Shown here piece after piece: positions 14,450 to 62,759 of a stretch of 64,000 nucleotides of DNA. The stretch covers positions 1 to 64,000 of IMG/VR virus record IMGVR_UViG_3300025677_000006. One strand, 5' to 3'. The position numbers were made by a program, and so were the translations under genes. Numbering within the stretch: the stretch's first letter is position 1; the number at the start of each line of letters is the position of its first letter. Source of the stretch: a virus. The notes below the pieces were generated by a model that saw nothing but the letters and a program-made list of their open reading frames with translations, searched no databases and was not told the origin of the DNA.

Positions 14450-14938
14450 TTGCATTATATTATTTTTATTATGTTTAATATTGAATATGATATTACATTA
14501 AATGAAAATGGTAGACCTTGTGTGGATTTATCAAATGATTATGAAAATAATCCAGAAGATAGATTTTTTGCAATAGAATTAACAAGATATTTATTGGAAA
14601 AAATATATGTTGAAAAGAATGATAAGTTTTCTGAAAATGCAATTAAACACATGAATAATACTATTAAACTATTAGGACAAATAAGTGATGAAATTGCAAA
14701 AATTTTATGGAATAATATGAAAGATAAAGGAGATATTGCATTTTCTTTGAATTCAAATTATCACATACAGGTGGAAAATATTGAAGAATTGTATAATTTA
14801 GATATGAAATATATATATTATAACAATAAAATTTTTGAAAGAAAAGAAGGATTAACTGTTTTGGTTCTTAATGAAATGAAAACATATAAATTAAAAAATG
14901 GGATTTTAAACAATAATTGGATTTCTACAAATGATTAA
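14450..14938 (+). CDS. Hypothetical protein
   Basis: 162-aa ORF. Confidence 0.4.
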   Translation: MHYIIFIMFNIEYDITLNENGRPCVDLSNDYENNPEDRFFAIELTRYLLEKIYVEKNDKFSENAIKHMNNTIKLLGQISDEIAKILWNNMKDKGDIAFSLNSNYHIQVENIEELYNLDMKYIYYNNKIFERKEGLTVLVLNEMKTYKLKNGILNNNWISTND

Positions 14939-17900
14939 TAAACCAACAAAAGAACAAGAAAGAATATTTTTATTTACAAAAAAAAGACCTGAAAATATTT
15001 TAATAAAAGCATATGCTGGTACAGGTAAATGTCTTGGATATGATACACCAGTATTGATGTATGATGGAACAATAAAAAGGGTTCAAGATATAAAAATTGG
15101 TGATTTTTTAATGGGTGATGATTCATCGCCTCGTAAAGTATTGAATAAAAATATTGGATATGGTAAACTATATAAAATAAAAAATGAAATAGGATATTCT
15201 TGGGTTTGTAATGATGTTCATGTAATTACACATTACAATGAAATTTCTAAAATTTTGTTAGATACACCACTAAATGAACTCAAATATTCAAAAAAATGGA
15301 ATGGTTATTTAAAAAATATTAAATTAAAAAAATCCATTGTTGAATTTCAAGAAAATAAAACAGAAATAAATCCATATTTATTAGGATTATGGTTAGGATA
15401 TAATTTAAAAAATAATATAAAACAATTTTTATTTGTCGATTTTAGGTTAACAAGAAAAATAATAGAAAAATTGTTGGAGTTAAAAGATAATTCTTTTTTT
15501 GTTTTAAATAAAACAAGTGTTTGTTTAAATAAAAAATATGAAAAGGGTTTTTATTCCGATGATTTTCAAAAGTGTATTATTTTTAATATTGATAAAAACA
15601 AAAAGAATATTCATTTATCAATACCAGACAAATATCTAATAAATTCTATTGAAAATAGAAAAAAAATCTTGGCGGGTATTTTTGATGTTTATTATAATAA
15701 AAAAAACAGGACATCCAAACTAACAATAATTTCAAAAAGGAAAATAGTTAATTTGAAATTTTTATGTGAAAGTTTAGGTTTTATATATAAAGAGAAAAAG
15801 ATATTTTCTTTTCGAAATAACATTTTTTGGAAAATTGACATTAATGGAAATACTAGCATATTACCTTTAGTATATAAAAGAAAACAAAAAACAAATTACA
15901 ATAATTTATTTTCTTTTAAAATAAAAGAAAATATTATATCACAAGGTTTATATTTTGGATTTACTTTAAATGGTAATGGTAGATTTTTATTGGGTGATTT
16001 TACAATCACACACAATACTTCAACCATAGTTGATGCAGTAAAATTATTACCTAAAGATAAATCTATTATGTTTTTAGCGTTCAATAAACACATACAAGAA
16101 GAATTAAAAACAAAATTACCCGAATATGTTAGATGTTATACAACTTATGGTTTAGGTACGTCTGCAATTAAAAGAAAATATGGTGATAAAATACAATTCG
16201 ATGAATTTAAAATTGATAAAATAATACAATCAAAATCAAAAAATTGGAAATTAAACGATGAATTTGATGATAACGATGATATTTCTTTATATTTAAATAA
16301 TATAAAAAAAATGGTTAATTTATGTAGATTAACATTAACAACAAATTCAGAATTTATTCCAAATATTGCTGAAAAATATAATATACCAATTAAAGAAAAT
16401 AAAGATATTAAAAGAATATTAAAAATATTAGAAGAATCAACAATTGATAGAAAAAATTATGATTTTATTGATATGATATATTTACCAGCAATAGATAGTA
16501 GTATTTGGATGTTTCCTCAAGATTATATTTTTATTGATGAAGTTCAAGATTTAAATCGTTGTCAAATAAAAATTGTAGAAAAATTAATAAAAAAAGATAA
16601 AACTACTGGTAAATATATAGGTAGATTAATATCTGTTGGTGATTATTATCAATGTCAACCTAAAGGAACAAAAATATTAATGAATGATAATACAGAAAAG
16701 GATATTGAAAATTTAAATGTTGGTGATTTAATTATTTCTTACGATAGAAAAAGTAATTCCTTTATTAAAAGTAAAATTAACAATATTGGTTGTAGGTATT
16801 ATAATGGAAATTTAATAAAAATAATTTCAAGAGGATGTGAATCTAAATATACACCAGAACATAAATGTTTGGTTAAAATAAAAAAAACAAAACAATTACA
16901 ATTTGTATTGTGTTTGTTTGAATTGATGGATGAAACTCAACACATACGTATATTCACAATAAGAAATGAGATTGATTTTTTTAAAATTTTTAAGAATAAA
17001 AGTGATGTTAATAAAATTTGGATTTTAAAATCGTACTATTCTTTGTATTATGCATATAAAGATGCTAATTATTATTTAGCAAATAAAGATAAAATATTTA
17101 ATGATTTTAATAAAAATTCAAACTACCCGATATGGAATTCTAATTGGAATATGGATTATAATCAAAATTTTTTAGAAATATATGCAATTAATATTATTCC
17201 AGATTTAATGCAAATTTGCAGTTTAAATGCAAATTTGCACAACATTCAAAAAATATATGAATTAAAATATGAAAAATATTCTGGTTTAGTTTATTCTTTA
17301 GAAATTGATAAATACGAAACATATGTTGCTGATAATATATTAACACATAATTGTATATATGGATTTAATGCAGCAGATGAAAAAGCGTTTGAATGGTTTA
17401 GTAAATTCCCAAATACTAAAACACTACCATTATCAACGTCATTCAGATGTTCAAAAAATGTAATAAAAAAAGCACAAGAAATTGTACCTGATATAAAAGC
17501 ACTACCCAATGCACCTGATGGTATTGTAAGGGATGGTAATGTTTTAAAAGAAGCAGAAAGTGGTGATTTTGTTTTATGTAGAACAACAATACCATTAATT
17601 AAATTATTTTTTGAATTTTTAGAACAAGAAAAAAAAGCAATTGTGAAAGGTTCTGATATTGGTGTTCAGTTAATTGAATTAATTGGTGATATTAAATCTA
17701 TTGACAATTTAATTCTTTTTTGGGATAGAGAATTAATTAAATATAGAAAAGAATTAAAAAAGGAAGGTATTTTAAACCCAAATGAACATAGTGGTTATGT
17801 TACATTAGAAGATAAAGTAACAACATTACTTTTTTTAGCAAAATTATCAAATAGTATTGTTGATTTAAAAAATAAAATTGGTTTAATTTTTAGTGATGAA

Positions 17901-18101
17901 ATTCAAGGAATTTGCTTAAGTACAATACATAAAATAAAGGGTCTTGAAGCAAATAGGGTCTTTATAATAAGACCAGATTTATTACCAATGAAAACAACAA
18001 AAAATTGGGAATTTTTACAAGAAAAAAATTTAGAATATGTTGCATATACAAGAGCAAAAAATGAATTAATCTTTGATAGAAATTGGACAGATATCTCTTA
18101 A
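14931..18101 (+). CDS. UvrD-type SF1 DNA helicase interrupted by two inteins
   Basis: Walker A reads AYAGTGK|C...HN|TSTIV. Motif III reads VGDYYQ|C...HN|CIYGFNAADE (compare UvrD GDDDQSIYGWRGA). C-terminal motifs are STIHKIKGLEANRVFII and YVAYTRAKNEL. Removing the two inserts leaves an extein of about 494 aa. Confidence 0.8.
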   Translation: MINKPTKEQERIFLFTKKRPENILIKAYAGTGKCLGYDTPVLMYDGTIKRVQDIKIGDFLMGDDSSPRKVLNKNIGYGKLYKIKNEIGYSWVCNDVHVITHYNEISKILLDTPLNELKYSKKWNGYLKNIKLKKSIVEFQENKTEINPYLLGLWLGYNLKNNIKQFLFVDFRLTRKIIEKLLELKDNSFFVLNKTSVCLNKKYEKGFYSDDFQKCIIFNIDKNKKNIHLSIPDKYLINSIENRKKILAGIFDVYYNKKNRTSKLTIISKRKIVNLKFLCESLGFIYKEKKIFSFRNNIFWKIDINGNTSILPLVYKRKQKTNYNNLFSFKIKENIISQGLYFGFTLNGNGRFLLGDFTITHNTSTIVDAVKLLPKDKSIMFLAFNKHIQEELKTKLPEYVRCYTTYGLGTSAIKRKYGDKIQFDEFKIDKIIQSKSKNWKLNDEFDDNDDISLYLNNIKKMVNLCRLTLTTNSEFIPNIAEKYNIPIKENKDIKRILKILEESTIDRKNYDFIDMIYLPAIDSSIWMFPQDYIFIDEVQDLNRCQIKIVEKLIKKDKTTGKYIGRLISVGDYYQCQPKGTKILMNDNTEKDIENLNVGDLIISYDRKSNSFIKSKINNIGCRYYNGNLIKIISRGCESKYTPEHKCLVKIKKTKQLQFVLCLFELMDETQHIRIFTIRNEIDFFKIFKNKSDVNKIWILKSYYSLYYAYKDANYYLANKDKIFNDFNKNSNYPIWNSNWNMDYNQNFLEIYAINIIPDLMQICSLNANLHNIQKIYELKYEKYSGLVYSLEIDKYETYVADNILTHNCIYGFNAADEKAFEWFSKFPNTKTLPLSTSFRCSKNVIKKAQEIVPDIKALPNAPDGIVRDGNVLKEAESGDFVLCRTTIPLIKLFFEFLEQEKKAIVKGSDIGVQLIELIGDIKSIDNLILFWDRELIKYRKELKKEGILNPNEHSGYVTLEDKVTTLLFLAKLSNSIVDLKNKIGLIFSDEIQGICLSTIHKIKGLEANRVFIIRPDLLPMKTTKNWEFLQEKNLEYVAYTRAKNELIFDRNWTDIS
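15030..16016 (+). mobile_element. Intein 1 (~329 aa) inserted in helicase Walker A. Contains degenerate LAGLIDADG-like motifs.
   Basis: Starts with Cys right after GTGK and ends with HN before Thr(+1). Internal motifs YLLGLWLGYN and KILAGIFDVYY resemble LAGLIDADG, but with the acidic residues replaced. Confidence 0.7.
16653..17351 (+). mobile_element. Intein 2 (~233 aa) inserted in helicase motif III
   Basis: Starts CQPKG immediately after GDYYQ. Ends ILTHN, followed by Cys(+1) of CIYGF. Confidence 0.7.
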
Positions 18102-18386: not shown

Positions 18387-18676
18387 TTTGTAACAATTTA
18401 AATTATTTATCGTATATTATAAAAATAATTAAATGATGGAAGAAACAAATAAAACCTTAAAAGAAGTATATAAGAATTCATCTGATGAAGTTAGAGAAAT
18501 TCTTAAAACTAATTGAATCTAATGTAAATGATATTAAAAATAAATTTCTTGAAATATTAAAAATATACTCTAAAAATATTATCTAAATGTTTATTATAAA
18601 GAGATATTAAATTATATTAGTTAAATTAATAATTTTTATAAGGTAAACCTGCTTATATATTCAAACCACTAATATT

Positions 18677-20134
18677 TTAATTTTTCCATAAATAACCATT
18701 TACTCTTTTTTCATTTTTACACCATCTTGATATTGTGGATTGATTAACATTTTCAAAAACACTCGCCTTTTTTGTTGATTCAAATTCAATAATTTCATTA
18801 GTTTTTAAATTAACTTTAAATACCTTTTTGCAAATTATTTCTTTTTGTTTTTCAGACAATCCAATTTGTTTTTTTGTTTTACTAATTTTTTGTTTAGTTT
18901 CTTCTGTATGGTTTTTACCTAACCAATATTTAGAAGAATTTTTACTTAAAATTAATTTATCTTGCTTTGTTTTTTTTCTACCGTATTTTTTTGCATCATT
19001 ACTACCTGCTTTTGAAATTCTTTTATTAATCCATTCTTTAGATTGTTTAATACCTAAATGAGAAATAGACATTTTATCTAAAGTTTCTTTTGTTGGTATT
19101 ATATTTTTACCACCACCTTCAATATTATAACCAAATTCTTTTTGGTTTGATTTATAATCACTAATATATTTAATTTCTTTATTGTTTAGTTCTTGAATTG
19201 TTTTTGCCGTATCAATTATTGTAAATTCAAAATTATCCCAACCATACTTATTGAATGCATTATTAATATAATCATTACCCAAACCATTTTTATATTCTAA
19301 TATTTTTTCATTTATTGAACGAATTGTTTGTCCAATATATAATTTGTTGTTTATTTTGTTTTTTATTTTATAAATAACGCCAATAATTTCATCATTTCTT
19401 TTAGGATATGGTAATATTAAATGATTTATAGATGTTTTATGTTTTTTATTATTTCTTGGTGTGTCTATAAAATAAAAATATCTATGTTTTCTATATTGTG
19501 GTAAAAATATTGCATTGGGATAGTGTTTTAAAATAACATTTTTTTTCATCGTACCCAATTTATTTCTAACCCATCTACTATATCTTAATTTACCATCAAT
19601 TAATACTGAAAATCTTTTTGTTTCTTTATTATTGGAATAATTACCAGACATAACACCAACATATAACCAATTTAATGATTGATAAATTGTTCCGATTTCA
19701 CCTGCTGCTGGGTCAACAGTTGCTGTTATTATTCTATATTTTGTATTATTTTTTAACCATTTACAAACCCTAGAAATAAAAAAAGATGCTGTATTTTTTG
19801 GTGTCCACCATAAACAAACACCCCTGCTTAATAATAAAATTTTATTTGTAAATCCATATTTATCCCAAACACCAGTATTTTCTGTATAATCATTACTAAA
19901 AACTAAAACACCACCTAGTTTTTGACCATTTTCTGTATTAAAATATATACCAAAACAATATTTAACAATATATGGCATTGTTTTTAACCATTCATATTCT
20001 ATTATAATTTTACTTGCAGTGTTTTTATCAATTAATTTAATTTCTGTATTATCTAAAGAAATGTTTTTATAATTAAAATCTAATATTTCTTCTTTTGATT
20101 TTTTTATTCTAATTTTATGTTGGTGTGCTTCCAT
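18677..20134 (-). CDS. GIY-YIG homing endonuclease-like protein fused to an N-terminal ~240-aa domain of unknown function, possibly a GNAT/Mom-like acyltransferase fold
   Basis: The C-terminal half has GIY-YIG (IIGVIYKIKNKINNKLYIGQT). It also has NUMOD3-like repeats (GKNHTEETKQKIS and similar) and a C-terminal HTH-like tail. The N-terminal half (..SRGVCLWW..ASFFISRVCKWL..ATVDPAAGEIGTIYQSLNWLYVG) has no Met before the GIY motif, so this is a single fused ORF. Confidence 0.65.
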   Translation of the reverse strand: MEAHQHKIRIKKSKEEILDFNYKNISLDNTEIKLIDKNTASKIIIEYEWLKTMPYIVKYCFGIYFNTENGQKLGGVLVFSNDYTENTGVWDKYGFTNKILLLSRGVCLWWTPKNTASFFISRVCKWLKNNTKYRIITATVDPAAGEIGTIYQSLNWLYVGVMSGNYSNNKETKRFSVLIDGKLRYSRWVRNKLGTMKKNVILKHYPNAIFLPQYRKHRYFYFIDTPRNNKKHKTSINHLILPYPKRNDEIIGVIYKIKNKINNKLYIGQTIRSINEKILEYKNGLGNDYINNAFNKYGWDNFEFTIIDTAKTIQELNNKEIKYISDYKSNQKEFGYNIEGGGKNIIPTKETLDKMSISHLGIKQSKEWINKRISKAGSNDAKKYGRKKTKQDKLILSKNSSKYWLGKNHTEETKQKISKTKKQIGLSEKQKEIICKKVFKVNLKTNEIIEFESTKKASVFENVNQSTISRWCKNEKRVNGYLWKN

Positions 20135-20222: not shown

Positions 20223-21905
20223 CTAGGATAAATCACCAACACCAAATGTTGTTAATCCATCACATAAGATTTTACCATAGTAACGGTTTAGAACCATTTT
20301 CTTAGCATAACGTGTTAAAATACCACGAATTGGTGTAAAATCAAATGGATTATACATTACAGGTGTTAATTGCATAGGTATATATGGTGCATAAATATAG
20401 CCGGTTTCCAATATGCTAGTTCCTTTATGTCCAATAAGAACAGTATTAGGTGCTGAATATGGGTCACGGTAAACAACATAACGTCCACCTATTGTACCAA
20501 TTTTTTCAATACCCATATTATACTTATCTTGTTCAGGTGAAGCATTTGAAACGTGGAAATATTCTAAGTCATCAAAAACAGCAGAAACTTCAGGAGATAC
20601 AACTATCCATGATGCACCACCACGTAATGTTGACTTATTAATTTGTGCTGAAATTTGGTTAATTTTAGTAATTAACGTTTGATTCCAGTCTTTTTGTACA
20701 CCATAATAAGTATTAGTTCCTTTTCTTAATCCGTTATAATCCCAACGAGCAGTCCATGCAGCACCACGTCTTAAGTCACGTAATATTTCACGGTCAATTT
20801 CAGCAGCCATTTGTTCTGATAACAATGCAGTTAATTCTGCTTCAGCATCAATATTATGGAATGCAGAAACGTCTTGTGCTAATTCAGGTGTCCACATTGC
20901 TCTCATTTTACGAGTTTCAACACTTACAGTAACATAATCAAGAACGAATGTTACTTCTGCCATTCTTGAATCTTGTTCAAGGTCGCTATATGTTCTATAT
21001 GTTGCAGTATAAGTAGTTCCAGTTGGAATGGTTAATGCATGATAACCATCTTTACCAGGATATTGAACATCAAGTAAAACAACAATTTTACCATTTTTAT
21101 CCACAATACCCTGTCCATATTTTTGAACTTTTACGTTAAATGGTATTGGATTTCCACTTGCAATATTTTCACTTGTATAACCACTTGGTGCTGTAAAAGT
21201 TTTATTTGCTGTTACTTTTAATCCAGCAAGGAATGATTCGGTATCCATTGGTGCGCCAGCAGGACCTACCAATTTACCTGCATTATCAGTAGTAAATCCT
21301 GTGATTTCAAGAGTAACGAATTTATCTCCTGCTGTATAACCTTTAGCAGTTAAACCAGTAATTGATTTACTATCAATACTACCTTTTGATAAATCGAATA
21401 ATGAAGTACCTTCATCATTATATTCAGTTGCATAGAATGCATCGTATAATGAACGAGTTTCAAAATTAGTTGAACTTGTTGATGTTTTTTCAGCAGCATT
21501 TCCATATGCACCATCAGGTGATGTATGAATATTACCAAGTGTTGTTGTATGTGTACTATCTTGTACACGTGTACTAGCCTTTGGATTGATAAAATATAAT
21601 CTACCTAAAGGTAAGTTAAGTGCTTGTACTGAAACAATATCGTTTGCTAATAATTTTGCAAACACCCTACGAATAACAGGGAATGCAACTGTTTCAAATT
21701 GACCGCTTGATGTAGAATCAGAAGATTCTTTAAGCATATGAGATAATTGGTTTTCGAATAATTGAGCGCAATTTTCTTTAATATTGCCATCTAATCCTTC
21801 AAGTAATCCAATTTTTTCCCAACGGTTTGTCGTAATTTCTCTTTGTTCACGAAGTTGTTTAATACCAATGTTACCAACTTCGCCACTTTCCATTAAAAAT
21901 CCCAT
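20223..21905 (-). CDS. Major capsid protein, T4 gp23 family
   Basis: VIRRVFAKLLANDIVSVQALNLPLGRLYF matches T4 gp23 (MVRRAIPNLIAFDICGVQPMNSPTGQVFAL). The C-terminus YIYAPYIPMQLTPVMYNPFDFTPIRGILTRYAK matches gp23 (IYYAPYVALTPLRGSDPKNFQPVMGFKTRYG). The N-terminus has a NCAQLFENQ block as in gp23. Confidence 0.9.
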   Translation of the reverse strand: MGFLMESGEVGNIGIKQLREQREITTNRWEKIGLLEGLDGNIKENCAQLFENQLSHMLKESSDSTSSGQFETVAFPVIRRVFAKLLANDIVSVQALNLPLGRLYFINPKASTRVQDSTHTTTLGNIHTSPDGAYGNAAEKTSTSSTNFETRSLYDAFYATEYNDEGTSLFDLSKGSIDSKSITGLTAKGYTAGDKFVTLEITGFTTDNAGKLVGPAGAPMDTESFLAGLKVTANKTFTAPSGYTSENIASGNPIPFNVKVQKYGQGIVDKNGKIVVLLDVQYPGKDGYHALTIPTGTTYTATYRTYSDLEQDSRMAEVTFVLDYVTVSVETRKMRAMWTPELAQDVSAFHNIDAEAELTALLSEQMAAEIDREILRDLRRGAAWTARWDYNGLRKGTNTYYGVQKDWNQTLITKINQISAQINKSTLRGGASWIVVSPEVSAVFDDLEYFHVSNASPEQDKYNMGIEKIGTIGGRYVVYRDPYSAPNTVLIGHKGTSILETGYIYAPYIPMQLTPVMYNPFDFTPIRGILTRYAKKMVLNRYYGKILCDGLTTFGVGDLS

Positions 21906-41283: not shown

Positions 41284-43398
41284 ATGAAAAATAATATTGT
41301 TGTTGTTTTTTCATCCCATTTATCTGAAGAAGAAAATCAGAAATTTATTAAACATATTAACAATACCATTGGTAAAGTTAAACATGATGTAATTTGCTAT
41401 TCAAATTTTAATCAGTATAGTCTTACTGAAATTTATAATAAAGCGATTAAAGAACATTATAAAAAGGATTCTATATTTGTTGTTTGTCATAATGATATTA
41501 TTATAGGTACGAGAGATTGGGGTAAATTATTGCTTTTTAAATTTAATCAAACAAATTTTGATATTATTGGTGTTGCAGGTAGTACCTATTTACCTGAATC
41601 CTGTGTATGGTGGGAAGATAGAACAAAAATGGTTGGTATTGTTGACCATACGGATGGATATTCTATTTGGACAAGTGAATATTCTAAAGAAAAAAAGGGT
41701 GTGATTACACCAGTTGTTTTGGTTGATGGTCTTTTTATTTCTTTTAATCCCGATACGATTGTACATAGATTTGATGAAGAATTTAAAGGGTTTCATCTTT
41801 ATGATTTATCATTTTGTATTCCAAATTGGCTTGATGGTTGTAATATTGGTGTAACAACAGATATTAGAATATTACATAAATCAATTGGTGAAACAAATCA
41901 ACAATGGGATGAAAATAGAAAACAATTAGCGGAAAAATATTATGATGAATTACCAATAACAATATTACCAGAATATAATGATTTAATTGTTAATTTATTA
42001 ACAGAGCCAAAAGTAACAGTAATTATTCCAACAAAAAATAATTTAAAGTATATTAAAAATAATATTTATTCTTGGAATAATGTTGTTAATTATGATAATT
42101 ATGAAATAATTATTGCTGATACGGGTAGTGATGAAAGTGTAATTAAGGAATATGATTCATTTCTTTCAAATAAAATTAAATTAATAAAATATAATTATTA
42201 TAATTTTGCTAAAATAAATAATGATGTAGTAAAAAATCATACATCTAATGATACAGAATTAATACTATTTTGTAATGATGATATAAAATTATTAAATGAT
42301 AGTCTTAGTAGATGTATTGAAATTTATAATCAAAATAAAGATACTGTTGGTACTATTGGTATTAGATTACATTATGGGGATGGTAGTATTCAACATAATG
42401 GGATTTTAATGTATAAAGAAAATAATATTTTAAGACTTACACATAAAGATATTAGAAAAACTGAAAATTATTTTACTGGTATTAATTACGATTCATTGGG
42501 AAATACTGGTGGGTTTATGTTAATTAAAAAAGATTTATTTTTAAAATATGGTGGGTTTAATGAAAACTATATTGAATGTTTGGAAGATGTTGAATTAAAT
42601 ATTAAATGTAAATACGATGGATTAAAAAATATTACAGTTAGTGATGCTGTTGCAATTCATTATGAATCTATAAGTAGAAATAAAATTTTGGGTGGTAATG
42701 AAAGATTTATGGTTGATTATAATAGATTGATGAATTTTGTAAACGATTTTGAAAATAAAGAAAGAGAAATTAAAAGAAATAAAGAAAATAAAAATCCAAT
42801 TATTAATATTATAACAAGAACACACGATAGACCTAAACATTTTAAAATATGTAGAGATTCAATTTTAAATCAAACATATAAAAATATTAATCATATTGTT
42901 GGTAGTGATATTGATTGTGATTATTGTGATGATTATATTAAATTAGAATTACAAGAAGTTCAACCAAAACCAGATAATTTGGCATCATATCCTGCACCTT
43001 GGAATTTACACATAAATGTTTTACATAACTATGTAAAAGAAGGTTGGATTATGTATTTAGATGATGATGATATGTTTATTAATGAAAATTCTTTAAGTAT
43101 AATAGTGAATCATATTGAAAATGAAGATGAATTATTGCTTTGGAGAGTAAACATTAATGGAAGAATAGTTCCAGATGATAATGGTTTTGGAAAAATTATT
43201 GCAGGGAATATATCTGGTATTGGTTTTATGTTTCATTCGAAATATTTACCAATTGATTGGGTGTCTTGGAATTTTGGTGATTATAGGGCTATTAAACAAT
43301 TAGAAAATAAAAAATTAAAACAGAAATGGATTAACCAAGTGTTAACAAAAACACAAGGTGTTCCAAATTTAGGAAAAAAACCAAATGATTATGAATAG
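41284..43398 (+). CDS. Multi-domain glycosyltransferase (at least two or three GT-A-like modules)
   Basis: VTVIIPTKNNLKYIK......YEIIIADTGSDE (GT2 signature). A second block has INIITRTHDRPKHFKICRDSILNQTY. An N-terminal module starts IVVVFSSHLSEEE. Total 704 aa. Confidence 0.6.
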   Translation: MKNNIVVVFSSHLSEEENQKFIKHINNTIGKVKHDVICYSNFNQYSLTEIYNKAIKEHYKKDSIFVVCHNDIIIGTRDWGKLLLFKFNQTNFDIIGVAGSTYLPESCVWWEDRTKMVGIVDHTDGYSIWTSEYSKEKKGVITPVVLVDGLFISFNPDTIVHRFDEEFKGFHLYDLSFCIPNWLDGCNIGVTTDIRILHKSIGETNQQWDENRKQLAEKYYDELPITILPEYNDLIVNLLTEPKVTVIIPTKNNLKYIKNNIYSWNNVVNYDNYEIIIADTGSDESVIKEYDSFLSNKIKLIKYNYYNFAKINNDVVKNHTSNDTELILFCNDDIKLLNDSLSRCIEIYNQNKDTVGTIGIRLHYGDGSIQHNGILMYKENNILRLTHKDIRKTENYFTGINYDSLGNTGGFMLIKKDLFLKYGGFNENYIECLEDVELNIKCKYDGLKNITVSDAVAIHYESISRNKILGGNERFMVDYNRLMNFVNDFENKEREIKRNKENKNPIINIITRTHDRPKHFKICRDSILNQTYKNINHIVGSDIDCDYCDDYIKLELQEVQPKPDNLASYPAPWNLHINVLHNYVKEGWIMYLDDDDMFINENSLSIIVNHIENEDELLLWRVNINGRIVPDDNGFGKIIAGNISGIGFMFHSKYLPIDWVSWNFGDYRAIKQLENKKLKQKWINQVLTKTQGVPNLGKKPNDYE

Positions 43399-46559: not shown

Positions 46560-47750
46560 GTGAAAACAATATATAGGACATATCGCTTTGAATTAAGACC
46601 GACACAAGACCAAAAAGTGTTGCTGGATAAACACTTCGGGTGTGTTAGGTTCGTGTACAATTACTTTCTGAATGAGCGTAAAGAACAGTATCAGGCAAAC
46701 AAGAAGTCTGACAACTATTATGTTCAAGCAAAAACTTTGACTGAATTAAAAAAGCAAGAGGAAACTGCTTGGCTTAAAGAAGTAAACAGCCAAACCCTGC
46801 AATTTGCTTTAAGGTCTTTGGATACTGCATTCCTTAACTTCTTTCGTGGCAATGCCAAGTTTCCAAGATTTAAGTCTAAGAAAAGAAGGAATAGTTTCAC
46901 CGTACCACAACACACAAAATTAGAAGGTAGTAAAATTCACGTACCTAAATTCAAAGAAGGGATTAAATGTATTGTTCACCGTGAAATAAGGGGCGATGTT
47001 GGCAAAATGACCTTTACTAAAACACCGACTGGAAGATACTATGTTTCAATTTTAACCGAAGAACAATATCAACCAAAAGAAAAAACTGGTGCTGTATGTG
47101 GTGTGGATTTAGGTTTGAAAGATTTTGCCATTACTTCTGACGGCATCAAATTCAAGAATAACAGATATACCAAGAAATATGAAAGAGATTTAGCGAAAGC
47201 ACAAAAACATCTTTCTCGTAAGCAAAAAGGTAGCAATTCGTTTGAAAGACAAAAACGAAAAGTTGCCAAAATACACGAGAAAATATCCAACACAAGACAA
47301 GATGTATTGCATAAGGTATCGCATCAACTTGTTTCTGATTATGACATAATTGCTTTGGAAGACCTTAATGTAAAGGGAATGATGAGCAATAGAAAATTAT
47401 CAAAACACATTGCAGATGCAAGTTGGGGTACATTTGTGAGATTCTTGGAGTACAAAGCAGATTGGAACGATAAACAAGTTGTTAAAATCAATCGCTTTTA
47501 CCCCTCAAGCAAAACTTGTAATGTGTGTGGATGGATAAATCAAGATTTAAATCTTTCGGTTCGTGAATGGACTTGCAAAAATGGACATAAATTAGACCGT
47601 GATTTAAATGCAGCAAAGGTCATTCTGAAAGAAGGATTGAAAATAATATCGGGTGGGACGCTCGATAACACGGATGGAGATGGTGTAAGAAGTAGTAATA
47701 CTCAACTATCTGCGAAGTCCGAAGCCCATTTGTCTTTAGCAAATGGGTAG
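46560..47750 (+). CDS. tnpB: IS605 OrfB / TnpB RNA-guided nuclease family protein
   Basis: 396 aa. N-terminal YRFELRPT..Q, a RuvC-like core, and a C-terminal zinc finger CNVCGW...CKNGHKLDRDLNAA. Confidence 0.85.
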   Translation: MKTIYRTYRFELRPTQDQKVLLDKHFGCVRFVYNYFLNERKEQYQANKKSDNYYVQAKTLTELKKQEETAWLKEVNSQTLQFALRSLDTAFLNFFRGNAKFPRFKSKKRRNSFTVPQHTKLEGSKIHVPKFKEGIKCIVHREIRGDVGKMTFTKTPTGRYYVSILTEEQYQPKEKTGAVCGVDLGLKDFAITSDGIKFKNNRYTKKYERDLAKAQKHLSRKQKGSNSFERQKRKVAKIHEKISNTRQDVLHKVSHQLVSDYDIIALEDLNVKGMMSNRKLSKHIADASWGTFVRFLEYKADWNDKQVVKINRFYPSSKTCNVCGWINQDLNLSVREWTCKNGHKLDRDLNAAKVILKEGLKIISGGTLDNTDGDGVRSSNTQLSAKSEAHLSLANG

Positions 47751-62543: not shown

Positions 62544-62616
62544 GTACAATTAACTCAATGGATAGAGTGTTCATTCACAATATGAAATATTGTTGGTTCG
62601 ATTCCAACATTGTAAA
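62544..62616 (+). tRNA. tRNA (73 nt), anticodon unclear (loop TCACAAT, formally ACA)
   Basis: Canonical cloverleaf. Acceptor GTACAAT/ATTGTAA with a G1:A72 mismatch. D-arm ACTC-AATGGATA-GAGT. Anticodon stem TTCAT/ATGAA. T-arm GTTGG-TTCGATT-CCAAC. Confidence 0.5.
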
Positions 62617-62648
62617 AAAATAACAAACAAATTTTCTGTTTTTTGAAA

Positions 62649-62734
62649 TTGCGGTGTGGAGAAATGGTATCTCGCCTGCCTCATAAGCACGGAGTCCCTA
62701 TTGGGTTTAAATGGGTTCGATTCCCATCACCGCT
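62649..62734 (+). tRNA. Type II tRNA (86 nt, long variable arm), anticodon loop CTCATAA (CAT)
   Basis: Acceptor TGCGGTG/CACCGCT with a T1:T72 mismatch. D-arm GAGA-AATGGTA-TCTC. A 19-nt variable arm. T-arm ATGGG-TTCGATT-CCCAT. Confidence 0.5.
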
Positions 62735-62759
62735 ACAAAAAAACGTTCTTTATATAAAT

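Follow-up and report, generated by a model that had tools for sequence, protein, structure and literature searches.

The locus described here raises the question of whether a phage helicase gene that is interrupted within two of its conserved motifs can still give rise to a working enzyme, and whether the interrupting elements are still able to spread. The window, i.e. the whole 64,000-nucleotide (nt) stretch that was analysed, corresponds to positions 1 to 64,000 of the IMG/VR virus record IMGVR_UViG_3300025677_000006, and the gene in question is an open reading frame (ORF) of 1056 codons at positions 14931-18101 on the plus strand. We consider it most probable, at roughly 85%, that this ORF encodes a precursor of a superfamily 1 (SF1) helicase carrying two inteins, both competent for splicing and incompetent for homing.

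The ORF is complete, starting with ATG and including its stop codon within the given coordinates, and specifies a protein of 1056 amino acids (aa) and 123.9 kDa; its 5' end shares 8 nt with the 3' end of the preceding ORF (14450-14938). The first extein segment (aa 1-33, 14931-15029) stops within the Walker A motif at AGTGK and is followed by intein 1 (329 aa, aa 34-362, 15030-16016). The second extein segment (aa 363-574, 16017-16652) holds the remainder of Walker A (TST), motif II (FIDEVQD) and the start of motif III (GDYYQ), and is followed by intein 2 (233 aa, aa 575-807, 16653-17351). The third segment (aa 808-1056, 17352-18098) completes motif III (CIYGF) and includes the UvrD_C domain. 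With a slash marking the junctions, these read AGTGK/CLGYD...FTITHN/TST for intein 1 and GDYYQ/CQPKG...NILTHN/CIYGF for intein 2. When the three extein pieces were joined, a protein of 494 aa and 57.4 kDa was obtained in which the motifs GTGKTST, IDEVQD and GDYYQCIYGF and both the N- and C-terminal UvrD domains were found, and on these features the extein is assigned to the UvrD/Rep/PcrA-type SF1 helicases. The original prediction had described the 1056-aa ORF as a UvrD-like helicase of about 494 aa, with Walker A and motif III each split by an intein running from Cys1 to a terminal HisAsn and followed by Thr or Cys at position +1. The predicted boundaries proved to be exact, and the score of the extein against the Pfam UvrD-helicase profile rose from 36 to 77 bits once both inserts were excised (UvrD_C, 43 bits). 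The G+C content of inteins and exteins was alike (0.205-0.254) and thus gave no compositional hint of a recent import.

The original prediction had also proposed that the inserts be compared with intein profiles and with intein-free homologs, and both comparisons were made. Each insert exceeded the Pfam cut-offs: for intein 1, the Hom_end_hint match begins at the first residue and reaches 54 bits (cut-off 32.1), and for intein 2, Intein_splicing is matched over its whole length at 37.6 bits (cut-off 35.8), with a further match to the TIGR01443 intein_Cterm model (16.4 bits, cut-off 15.6). The Hint domain of intein 1 is of the PI-SceI type, as judged from its profile match. All residues required for class 1 splicing are in place. 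The first cysteines are Cys34 (TGT, nt 15030) and Cys575 (TGT, nt 16653), both inteins end in THN, and intein 1 is followed by Thr and intein 2 by Cys. Block B reads NDVH in intein 1 (nt 15210-15221) and TPEH in intein 2 (nt 16851-16862), so that intein 1 has Asn for Thr at the first position and retains the His.

In tblastn, the spliced extein gave one unbroken alignment, covering 94-98% of its length, with helicases of cultured phages that lack inteins; Chryseobacterium phage MA9V-3 was the best match (37.5% identity). Among metagenomic sequences, 113 intein-free homologs were recovered, all but one of them 490-498 aa long, with 73-79% identity over 99-100% of the length, and the majority of close homologs lack both inserts exactly at the predicted junctions. 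This comparison with empty alleles constitutes the strongest evidence for inteins, and together with the profile matches it assigns both inserts to class 1 inteins that have a Hint fold.

The full precursor matched more than 1000 homologs, and inserts were mapped in the best 120 of these. Three intein sites were found: site a, directly after the Walker A Lys in the P-loop, site b in motif II (pattern VDE/C...HN/CQD) and site c in motif III (pattern GDxxQ/C...THN/S/C-IYGF, where the last slash separates alternative residues). Intein 1 occupies site a and was aligned with 73 other site-a inteins, and intein 2 occupies site c and was aligned with 36 site-c inteins.

Intein 1 was predicted to be about 329 aa long and to contain LAGLIDADG-like motifs in which the catalytic acidic residues are substituted, and this description was confirmed. 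The two motifs, LLGLWLGYN (nt 15378-15404) and ILAGIFDVYY (nt 15666-15695), align to LLGLWLGDG and LLAGIIDTDG of the relatives and the two LAGLIDADG helices are recognisable, whereas both positions that hold the catalytic Asp in the relatives are Tyr, encoded by TAT, a single transversion away from GAT. Nearly all site-a relatives of 336-350 aa have LxGxWxGDG and LLAGxxDxDG where intein 1 has GYN and DVYY, and a few carry single substitutions (e.g. GNG, GDS or DSNG). Intein 1 is about 11 residues shorter than its intact relatives. The relatives carry the Pfam domains PF05204 (Hom_end) and PF14528 (LAGLIDADG_3), whereas intein 1 had no match to the endonuclease profiles PF05204, PF14528 and PF03161 at E<=1. 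A hidden Markov model (HMM) built from the intact domain of the relatives still scored 73 bits (E 1e-24) against the nuclease domain of intein 1, which is therefore homologous yet degraded; this model and the drop in identity place the degenerate domain at 15366-15899 on the plus strand. Against ten close relatives, the nuclease part of intein 1 is 33% identical and the Hint parts are 56% identical (ratio 0.59), whereas the corresponding ratio among the site-a relatives themselves is 0.9-1.0. This indicates that the nuclease part of intein 1 has probably been under relaxed constraint. With Tyr at both catalytic Asp positions, intein 1 was classified as LAGLIDADG-derived and not as an active member. 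Other site-a relatives show further decay (244-270 aa) or are true mini-inteins (144 and 149 aa), and the site-a copies, taken together, span the whole series of the homing cycle.

The predicted size of intein 2, 233 aa, was correct; the view that only one of the two inteins has a degenerate nuclease was not, because intein 2 also holds a decayed nested domain. Intact site-c inteins are 298-311 aa long and have a conserved domain of 146 aa between the two Hint halves, with the invariant residues Y12, M14, G23, R39, E43, W49, E64, S68, P74 and Q75. In intein 2 (remnant at 16881-17198 on the plus strand, hmmsearch E 3e-8) this domain was found as two profile fragments, positions 2-67 and 107-146, with positions 68-106 deleted. 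The substitutions Y12E, G23F, R39F, E43S and E64A are present and S68, P74 and Q75 are deleted; a 29-residue insert of the N-terminal Hint half is also absent. The nested domain is 26% identical to that of the relatives, as against about 50% for the Hint halves (ratio 0.52). By these residue states, intein 2 is likewise nuclease-decayed and contains the remnant of a second nested domain, of a non-LAGLIDADG type. Actinophage inteins with out-of-frame or antisense nuclease ORFs are known; only two antisense ORFs were found within the inteins studied here, and both were short (65 and 72 aa).

According to the explanation that we favour, translation would yield a 124-kDa precursor from which the two class 1 inteins excise themselves. 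Following the known class 1 mechanism, an N-S acyl shift at Cys1 would be followed by acyl transfer onto the +1 Thr (intein 1) or the +1 Cys (intein 2), cyclisation of the terminal Asn with assistance from the penultimate His, and a last shift yielding the peptide bond. The product would be a 57-kDa helicase in which Walker A (GTGK-TST) and motif III (GDYYQ-CIYGF) are restored. Both inteins would represent old invasions that have reached the stage of decay in the homing cycle. The ancestor of intein 1 would have been a PI-SceI-like LAGLIDADG intein that has since lost both catalytic Asp residues, and that of intein 2 an SPO1-type motif III intein whose nested domain has since lost about 40 residues as well as the invariant ones. 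Neither intein would be able to cut an empty allele, and both would be retained only because a working helicase requires splicing.

Four points weigh against this explanation. The loss of nuclease function is deduced from residue identity alone, and some LAGLIDADG enzymes have unusual active sites. Expression and splicing are likewise read from the DNA sequence alone. The DNA is identical across the helicase gene in the four contigs compared, so that no polymorphism is available to gauge selection on the Hint and nuclease parts. Finally, block B of intein 1 has Asn at its first position, a substitution that is probably tolerated given that NDVH is common to the whole site-a family.

Among the competing explanations, the one that survives best, itself quite improbable, holds that one or both inteins are dead for splicing and that the helicase gene is a dead or dying pseudogene, open by chance or because of its recent origin. 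Both nuclease domains are decaying, and the sampled population is clonal, so that a recent inactivating change would be invisible as a polymorphism. The splicing residues and the reading frame speak for a functional gene: all class 1 splicing residues are kept in both inteins, the helicase motifs are all intact, and the extein remains as similar to its intein-free homologs as stated above, with an unbroken frame. At the local G+C content of 21% about 10.7% of random codons are stops, and the probability that a frame of 1056 codons stays open by chance is P ~1e-52. Furthermore, the allele is unchanged in at least 23 assemblies.

Improbable as well, and ranking next, is the idea that the inteins have been domesticated, with the inner domains serving as DNA-binding or regulatory modules and splicing as a conditional switch of the helicase. 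Regulatory roles have been proposed for inteins clustered in ATPase motifs (PMC4760082), and the inner domains have not been trimmed to a mini-intein even though 144-149 aa are viable at site a. However, divergence is faster in the inner domains than in the Hint parts (the ratios of 0.59 and 0.52 given above), the deletion of conserved segments is a sign of relaxed constraint and not of a new function, and the remaining decayed copies (P0075, P0050, P0096 and P0099) have no new conserved motif in common with them. That the inserts are ordinary helicase accessory domains and not inteins is practically excluded by the fold, by the Pfam intein/Hint scores, which pass the cut-offs for both inserts, and by the empty alleles, as most close homologs lack the inserts at the exact junctions.

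If a double-intein precursor that splices and no longer homes is accepted as the likeliest state of the gene, the main interest shifts to the uncharacterised nested domain of the intact site-c relatives. None of 24 members of this domain family had a Pfam match at E<=10, PF01541 included, and searches of PHROGs, a profile search of the PDB and a Foldseek search of the domain against the PDB gave no match. A GIY-YIG profile was seeded from the window's own GIY-YIG ORF, the search for which gave 8 sequences only. Comparison by hhalign with a 4-sequence GIY-YIG alignment was negative, and that with a 13-sequence alignment gave a probability of about 1% (P 0.056, not significant), in a correct register, in which the invariant Tyr falls on the GIY Tyr, the invariant Gly on the YIG Gly and Glu64 on the Glu75 that binds metal in I-TevI. 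The second motif of the nested domain is R-I-G instead of Y-I-G. The AlphaFold models were confident, with a predicted local distance difference test score (pLDDT) of 93 for the intein of a relative (P0025) and of 86 for the nested domain alone. In the prediction, the topology runs beta-beta-alpha-beta-alpha with two further helices at the end, and the invariant residues are Y12 in beta1, R39 and E43 in alpha1 and E64 in alpha2. With the model of the full intein, GIY-YIG nucleases were the first non-Hint matches.

The nested-domain family comprises 1676 clusters at 50% identity (E<=1e-3). Nine of its members were checked, and eight of them had an Intein_splicing match, including all four UvrD-type helicases among the nine; the remaining one is a 195-aa fragment without a Pfam match. 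Whatever its fold, the nested domain is very probably the homing endonuclease of the site-c inteins, given the patchy distribution of these inteins among close helicase homologs and the lack of any other nuclease candidate in them. A divergent nuclease of the GIY-YIG fold would be its likeliest identity rather than an established one, at slightly better than even odds. Dassa et al. 2009 (PMC2677866) stated that GIY-YIG nucleases were "not known to be present in inteins", a survey from 2025 (10.1101/2025.01.02.630785) listed only LAGLIDADG, HNH, VSR-like and EndoVII-like nucleases in inteins, and no report of GIY-YIG as an in-frame intein nuclease was found in the searchable intein literature. 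We regard it as an even bet that the motif III (SPO1-type) inteins of UvrD helicases, in at least 1676 clusters, carry an in-frame homing nuclease of the GIY-YIG fold of which intein 2 retains a decayed remnant. If so, the known repertoire of intein-borne homing nucleases would be wider, and intein 2 would record a full homing cycle of gain, decay and shrinkage for a new combination of intein and nuclease.

The occupancy of the three sites was counted in the best 120 homologs together with the window protein. Single inteins were most often found at site a (62 proteins), followed by site c (25) and site b (18), and multiple occupancy was seen as a+c in nine proteins, a+b+c in two, and a+b and b+c in one each. 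The closest relatives in a search with the extein alone were mostly intein-free. Double occupancy, as it appears in these sequences, is therefore a recurrent state of this UvrD-type helicase family and is not peculiar to one phage. Inteins are known to cluster in ATPase motifs, UvrD included, with the P-loop as a hot spot (PMC4760082). The stacking of two inteins in one helicase, regarded as striking in the original prediction, thus loses its singularity, also because the motif III allele has already been annotated in the UvrD-type helicase gp34.33 of Bacillus phage SPO1.

The residue after the motif III Gln is Gly in 111 of the 113 empty close homologs, and in the site-c intein-bearing proteins examined the +1 residue is Ser (60) or Cys (26). 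Gly is unable to act as a +1 nucleophile. Hence the flanking codon would have to be co-converted if a Gly allele were invaded; alternatively, Gly may mark alleles that are resistant to the intein.

Streptococcus suis prophages also contain full-length counterparts of the site-c intein (28.8% identity, 100% coverage), inside genes annotated as adenine-specific DNA methyltransferase, so that this intein type appears to have colonised a non-helicase host as well. In addition, a related phage contig (L005, which carries the homolog P0002) encodes at 18430-19420 on the minus strand a prohead protease (Peptidase_S77) with an Intein_splicing match, and by this match a structural or maturation gene of that related phage holds an intein.

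With respect to the carrier genome, a Gp23-type major capsid gene (238 bits) lies at 20226-21905 on the minus strand, 2 kb from the helicase gene, which supports the phage origin assumed in the original prediction. This capsid shares no more than about 31% identity with those of the nearest phages, the uncultured 484-kb phage LR756508 and the Flavobacterium phage immuto group. From these features the genome is best described as that of a deep-branching T4-like phage of jumbo size with about 21% G+C. The window also codes for a DnaB-like helicase; a RecA-like match was weak and below threshold. The identical 1056-aa protein occurs in 69 blocks of the collection, the gene was read in 23 contigs, and contigs extend up to 220-240 kb; the sole full-length variant of the precursor differs by one extein residue. 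Megablast found no near-identical DNA in cultured phages. The precursor is already present at NCBI as HPC09580.1, 'MAG TPA: Hint domain-containing homing endonuclease [archaeon]', a name that is generic and a bin that is probably wrong.

Several neighbouring genes were recorded. At 18680-20134 on the minus strand, a 485-aa ORF fuses in frame a Mom-family domain (PF25680, aa 31-245, 92 bits) and a GIY-YIG domain (PF01541, aa 252-331). Among other contigs whose helicase gene is identical, this region holds either a 402-aa ORF with a TnpB gene behind it or a GIY-YIG ORF and a Mom ORF that are split from each other; the pattern resembles that of a homing-endonuclease gene on the move at the 3' end of mom. 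A 396-aa TnpB with HTH_OrfB_IS605, OrfB_IS605 and Cas12f1-like TNB domains is encoded inside the phage genome at 46560-47747 (plus strand). Two neighbouring tRNA genes were detected by ARAGORN at 62544-62736 (plus strand), tRNA-Cys (anticodon printed as aca) and tRNA-Met (cat), directly downstream of the DnaB-like helicase gene. A 704-aa protein with two glycosyltransferase domains (Glyco_tranf_2_5 and Glycos_transf_2) is encoded at 41284-43395 (plus strand), and a link to modification of the phage's DNA or surface is possible.

Taken together, the finding is correct but adds one more case to a known, widespread arrangement, in a protein that had already been deposited. What the window adds is two intein alleles, both presumably nuclease-dead, which illustrate the late decay of the homing cycle at two catalytic motifs of one enzyme and might be of modest use as naturally minimised inteins of an AT-rich phage in splicing studies. 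The context is a single SF1 helicase family with three hot spots (P-loop, motif II and motif III), in which all states from empty to triple occupancy are found. Knowledge of the motif III allele dates back to the SPO1 genome, yet its nested domain is unannotated in Pfam, PHROGs and the PDB.

Among known systems, the gp34.33 intein of SPO1 is the counterpart of intein 2. It is inserted at the same point of motif III, with GDDDQ/CQPAG...VTHN/SMYSF in SPO1 and GDYYQ/CQPKG...LTHN/CIYGF in the window, and it shares with the site-c relatives the Hint family and the 146-aa domain (E 2e-32 to the family profile). The gp34.33-type intein is annotated in the records of SPO1 and CampHawk (PMC3868849), in SPO1 as an 'apparent intein, 275 aa, starting with aa 292', and the motif III allele is found in CampHawk, vB_BsuM-Goe2 and Vibrio phage RYC as well. 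The SPO1 copy, with 275 aa, retains the conserved Tyr, Gly, Arg and second Glu, whereas intein 2, with 233 aa, has lost these and about 40 residues. Identity between the SPO1 and window families is just about 28%, and SPO1 is a herellevirus whereas the window derives from a T4-like phage. The likeness to GIY-YIG nucleases such as I-TevI, the N-domain of UvrC, SLX1 and T4 EndoII concerns the domain of the intact site-c relatives only, since every GIY-YIG-comparable residue is lost from the remnant in intein 2.

Intein 1 resembles the PI-SceI (VMA1) type in its Hom_end_hint domain, its nested LAGLIDADG domain and its insertion in an ATPase P-loop, and differs from it in that both LAGLIDADG catalytic Asp residues are Tyr and that the Pfam endonuclease profiles fail to detect the nested domain. 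Homologs of intein 1 with 31% identity over the full length occur in helicases of Bacteroides phage BS162P1 and Salmonella Kenya-K phages. Its position after the Walker A Lys is a hot spot also in DnaB, MCM and RFC (PMC4760082). The multi-intein DnaB proteins, occupied at their sites a and b (PMC4760082), are alike in having several inteins in catalytic motifs of one helicase; unlike the hexameric DnaB, the host protein in the window is a UvrD-type SF1 helicase, and the nuclease domains of both its inteins have decayed.

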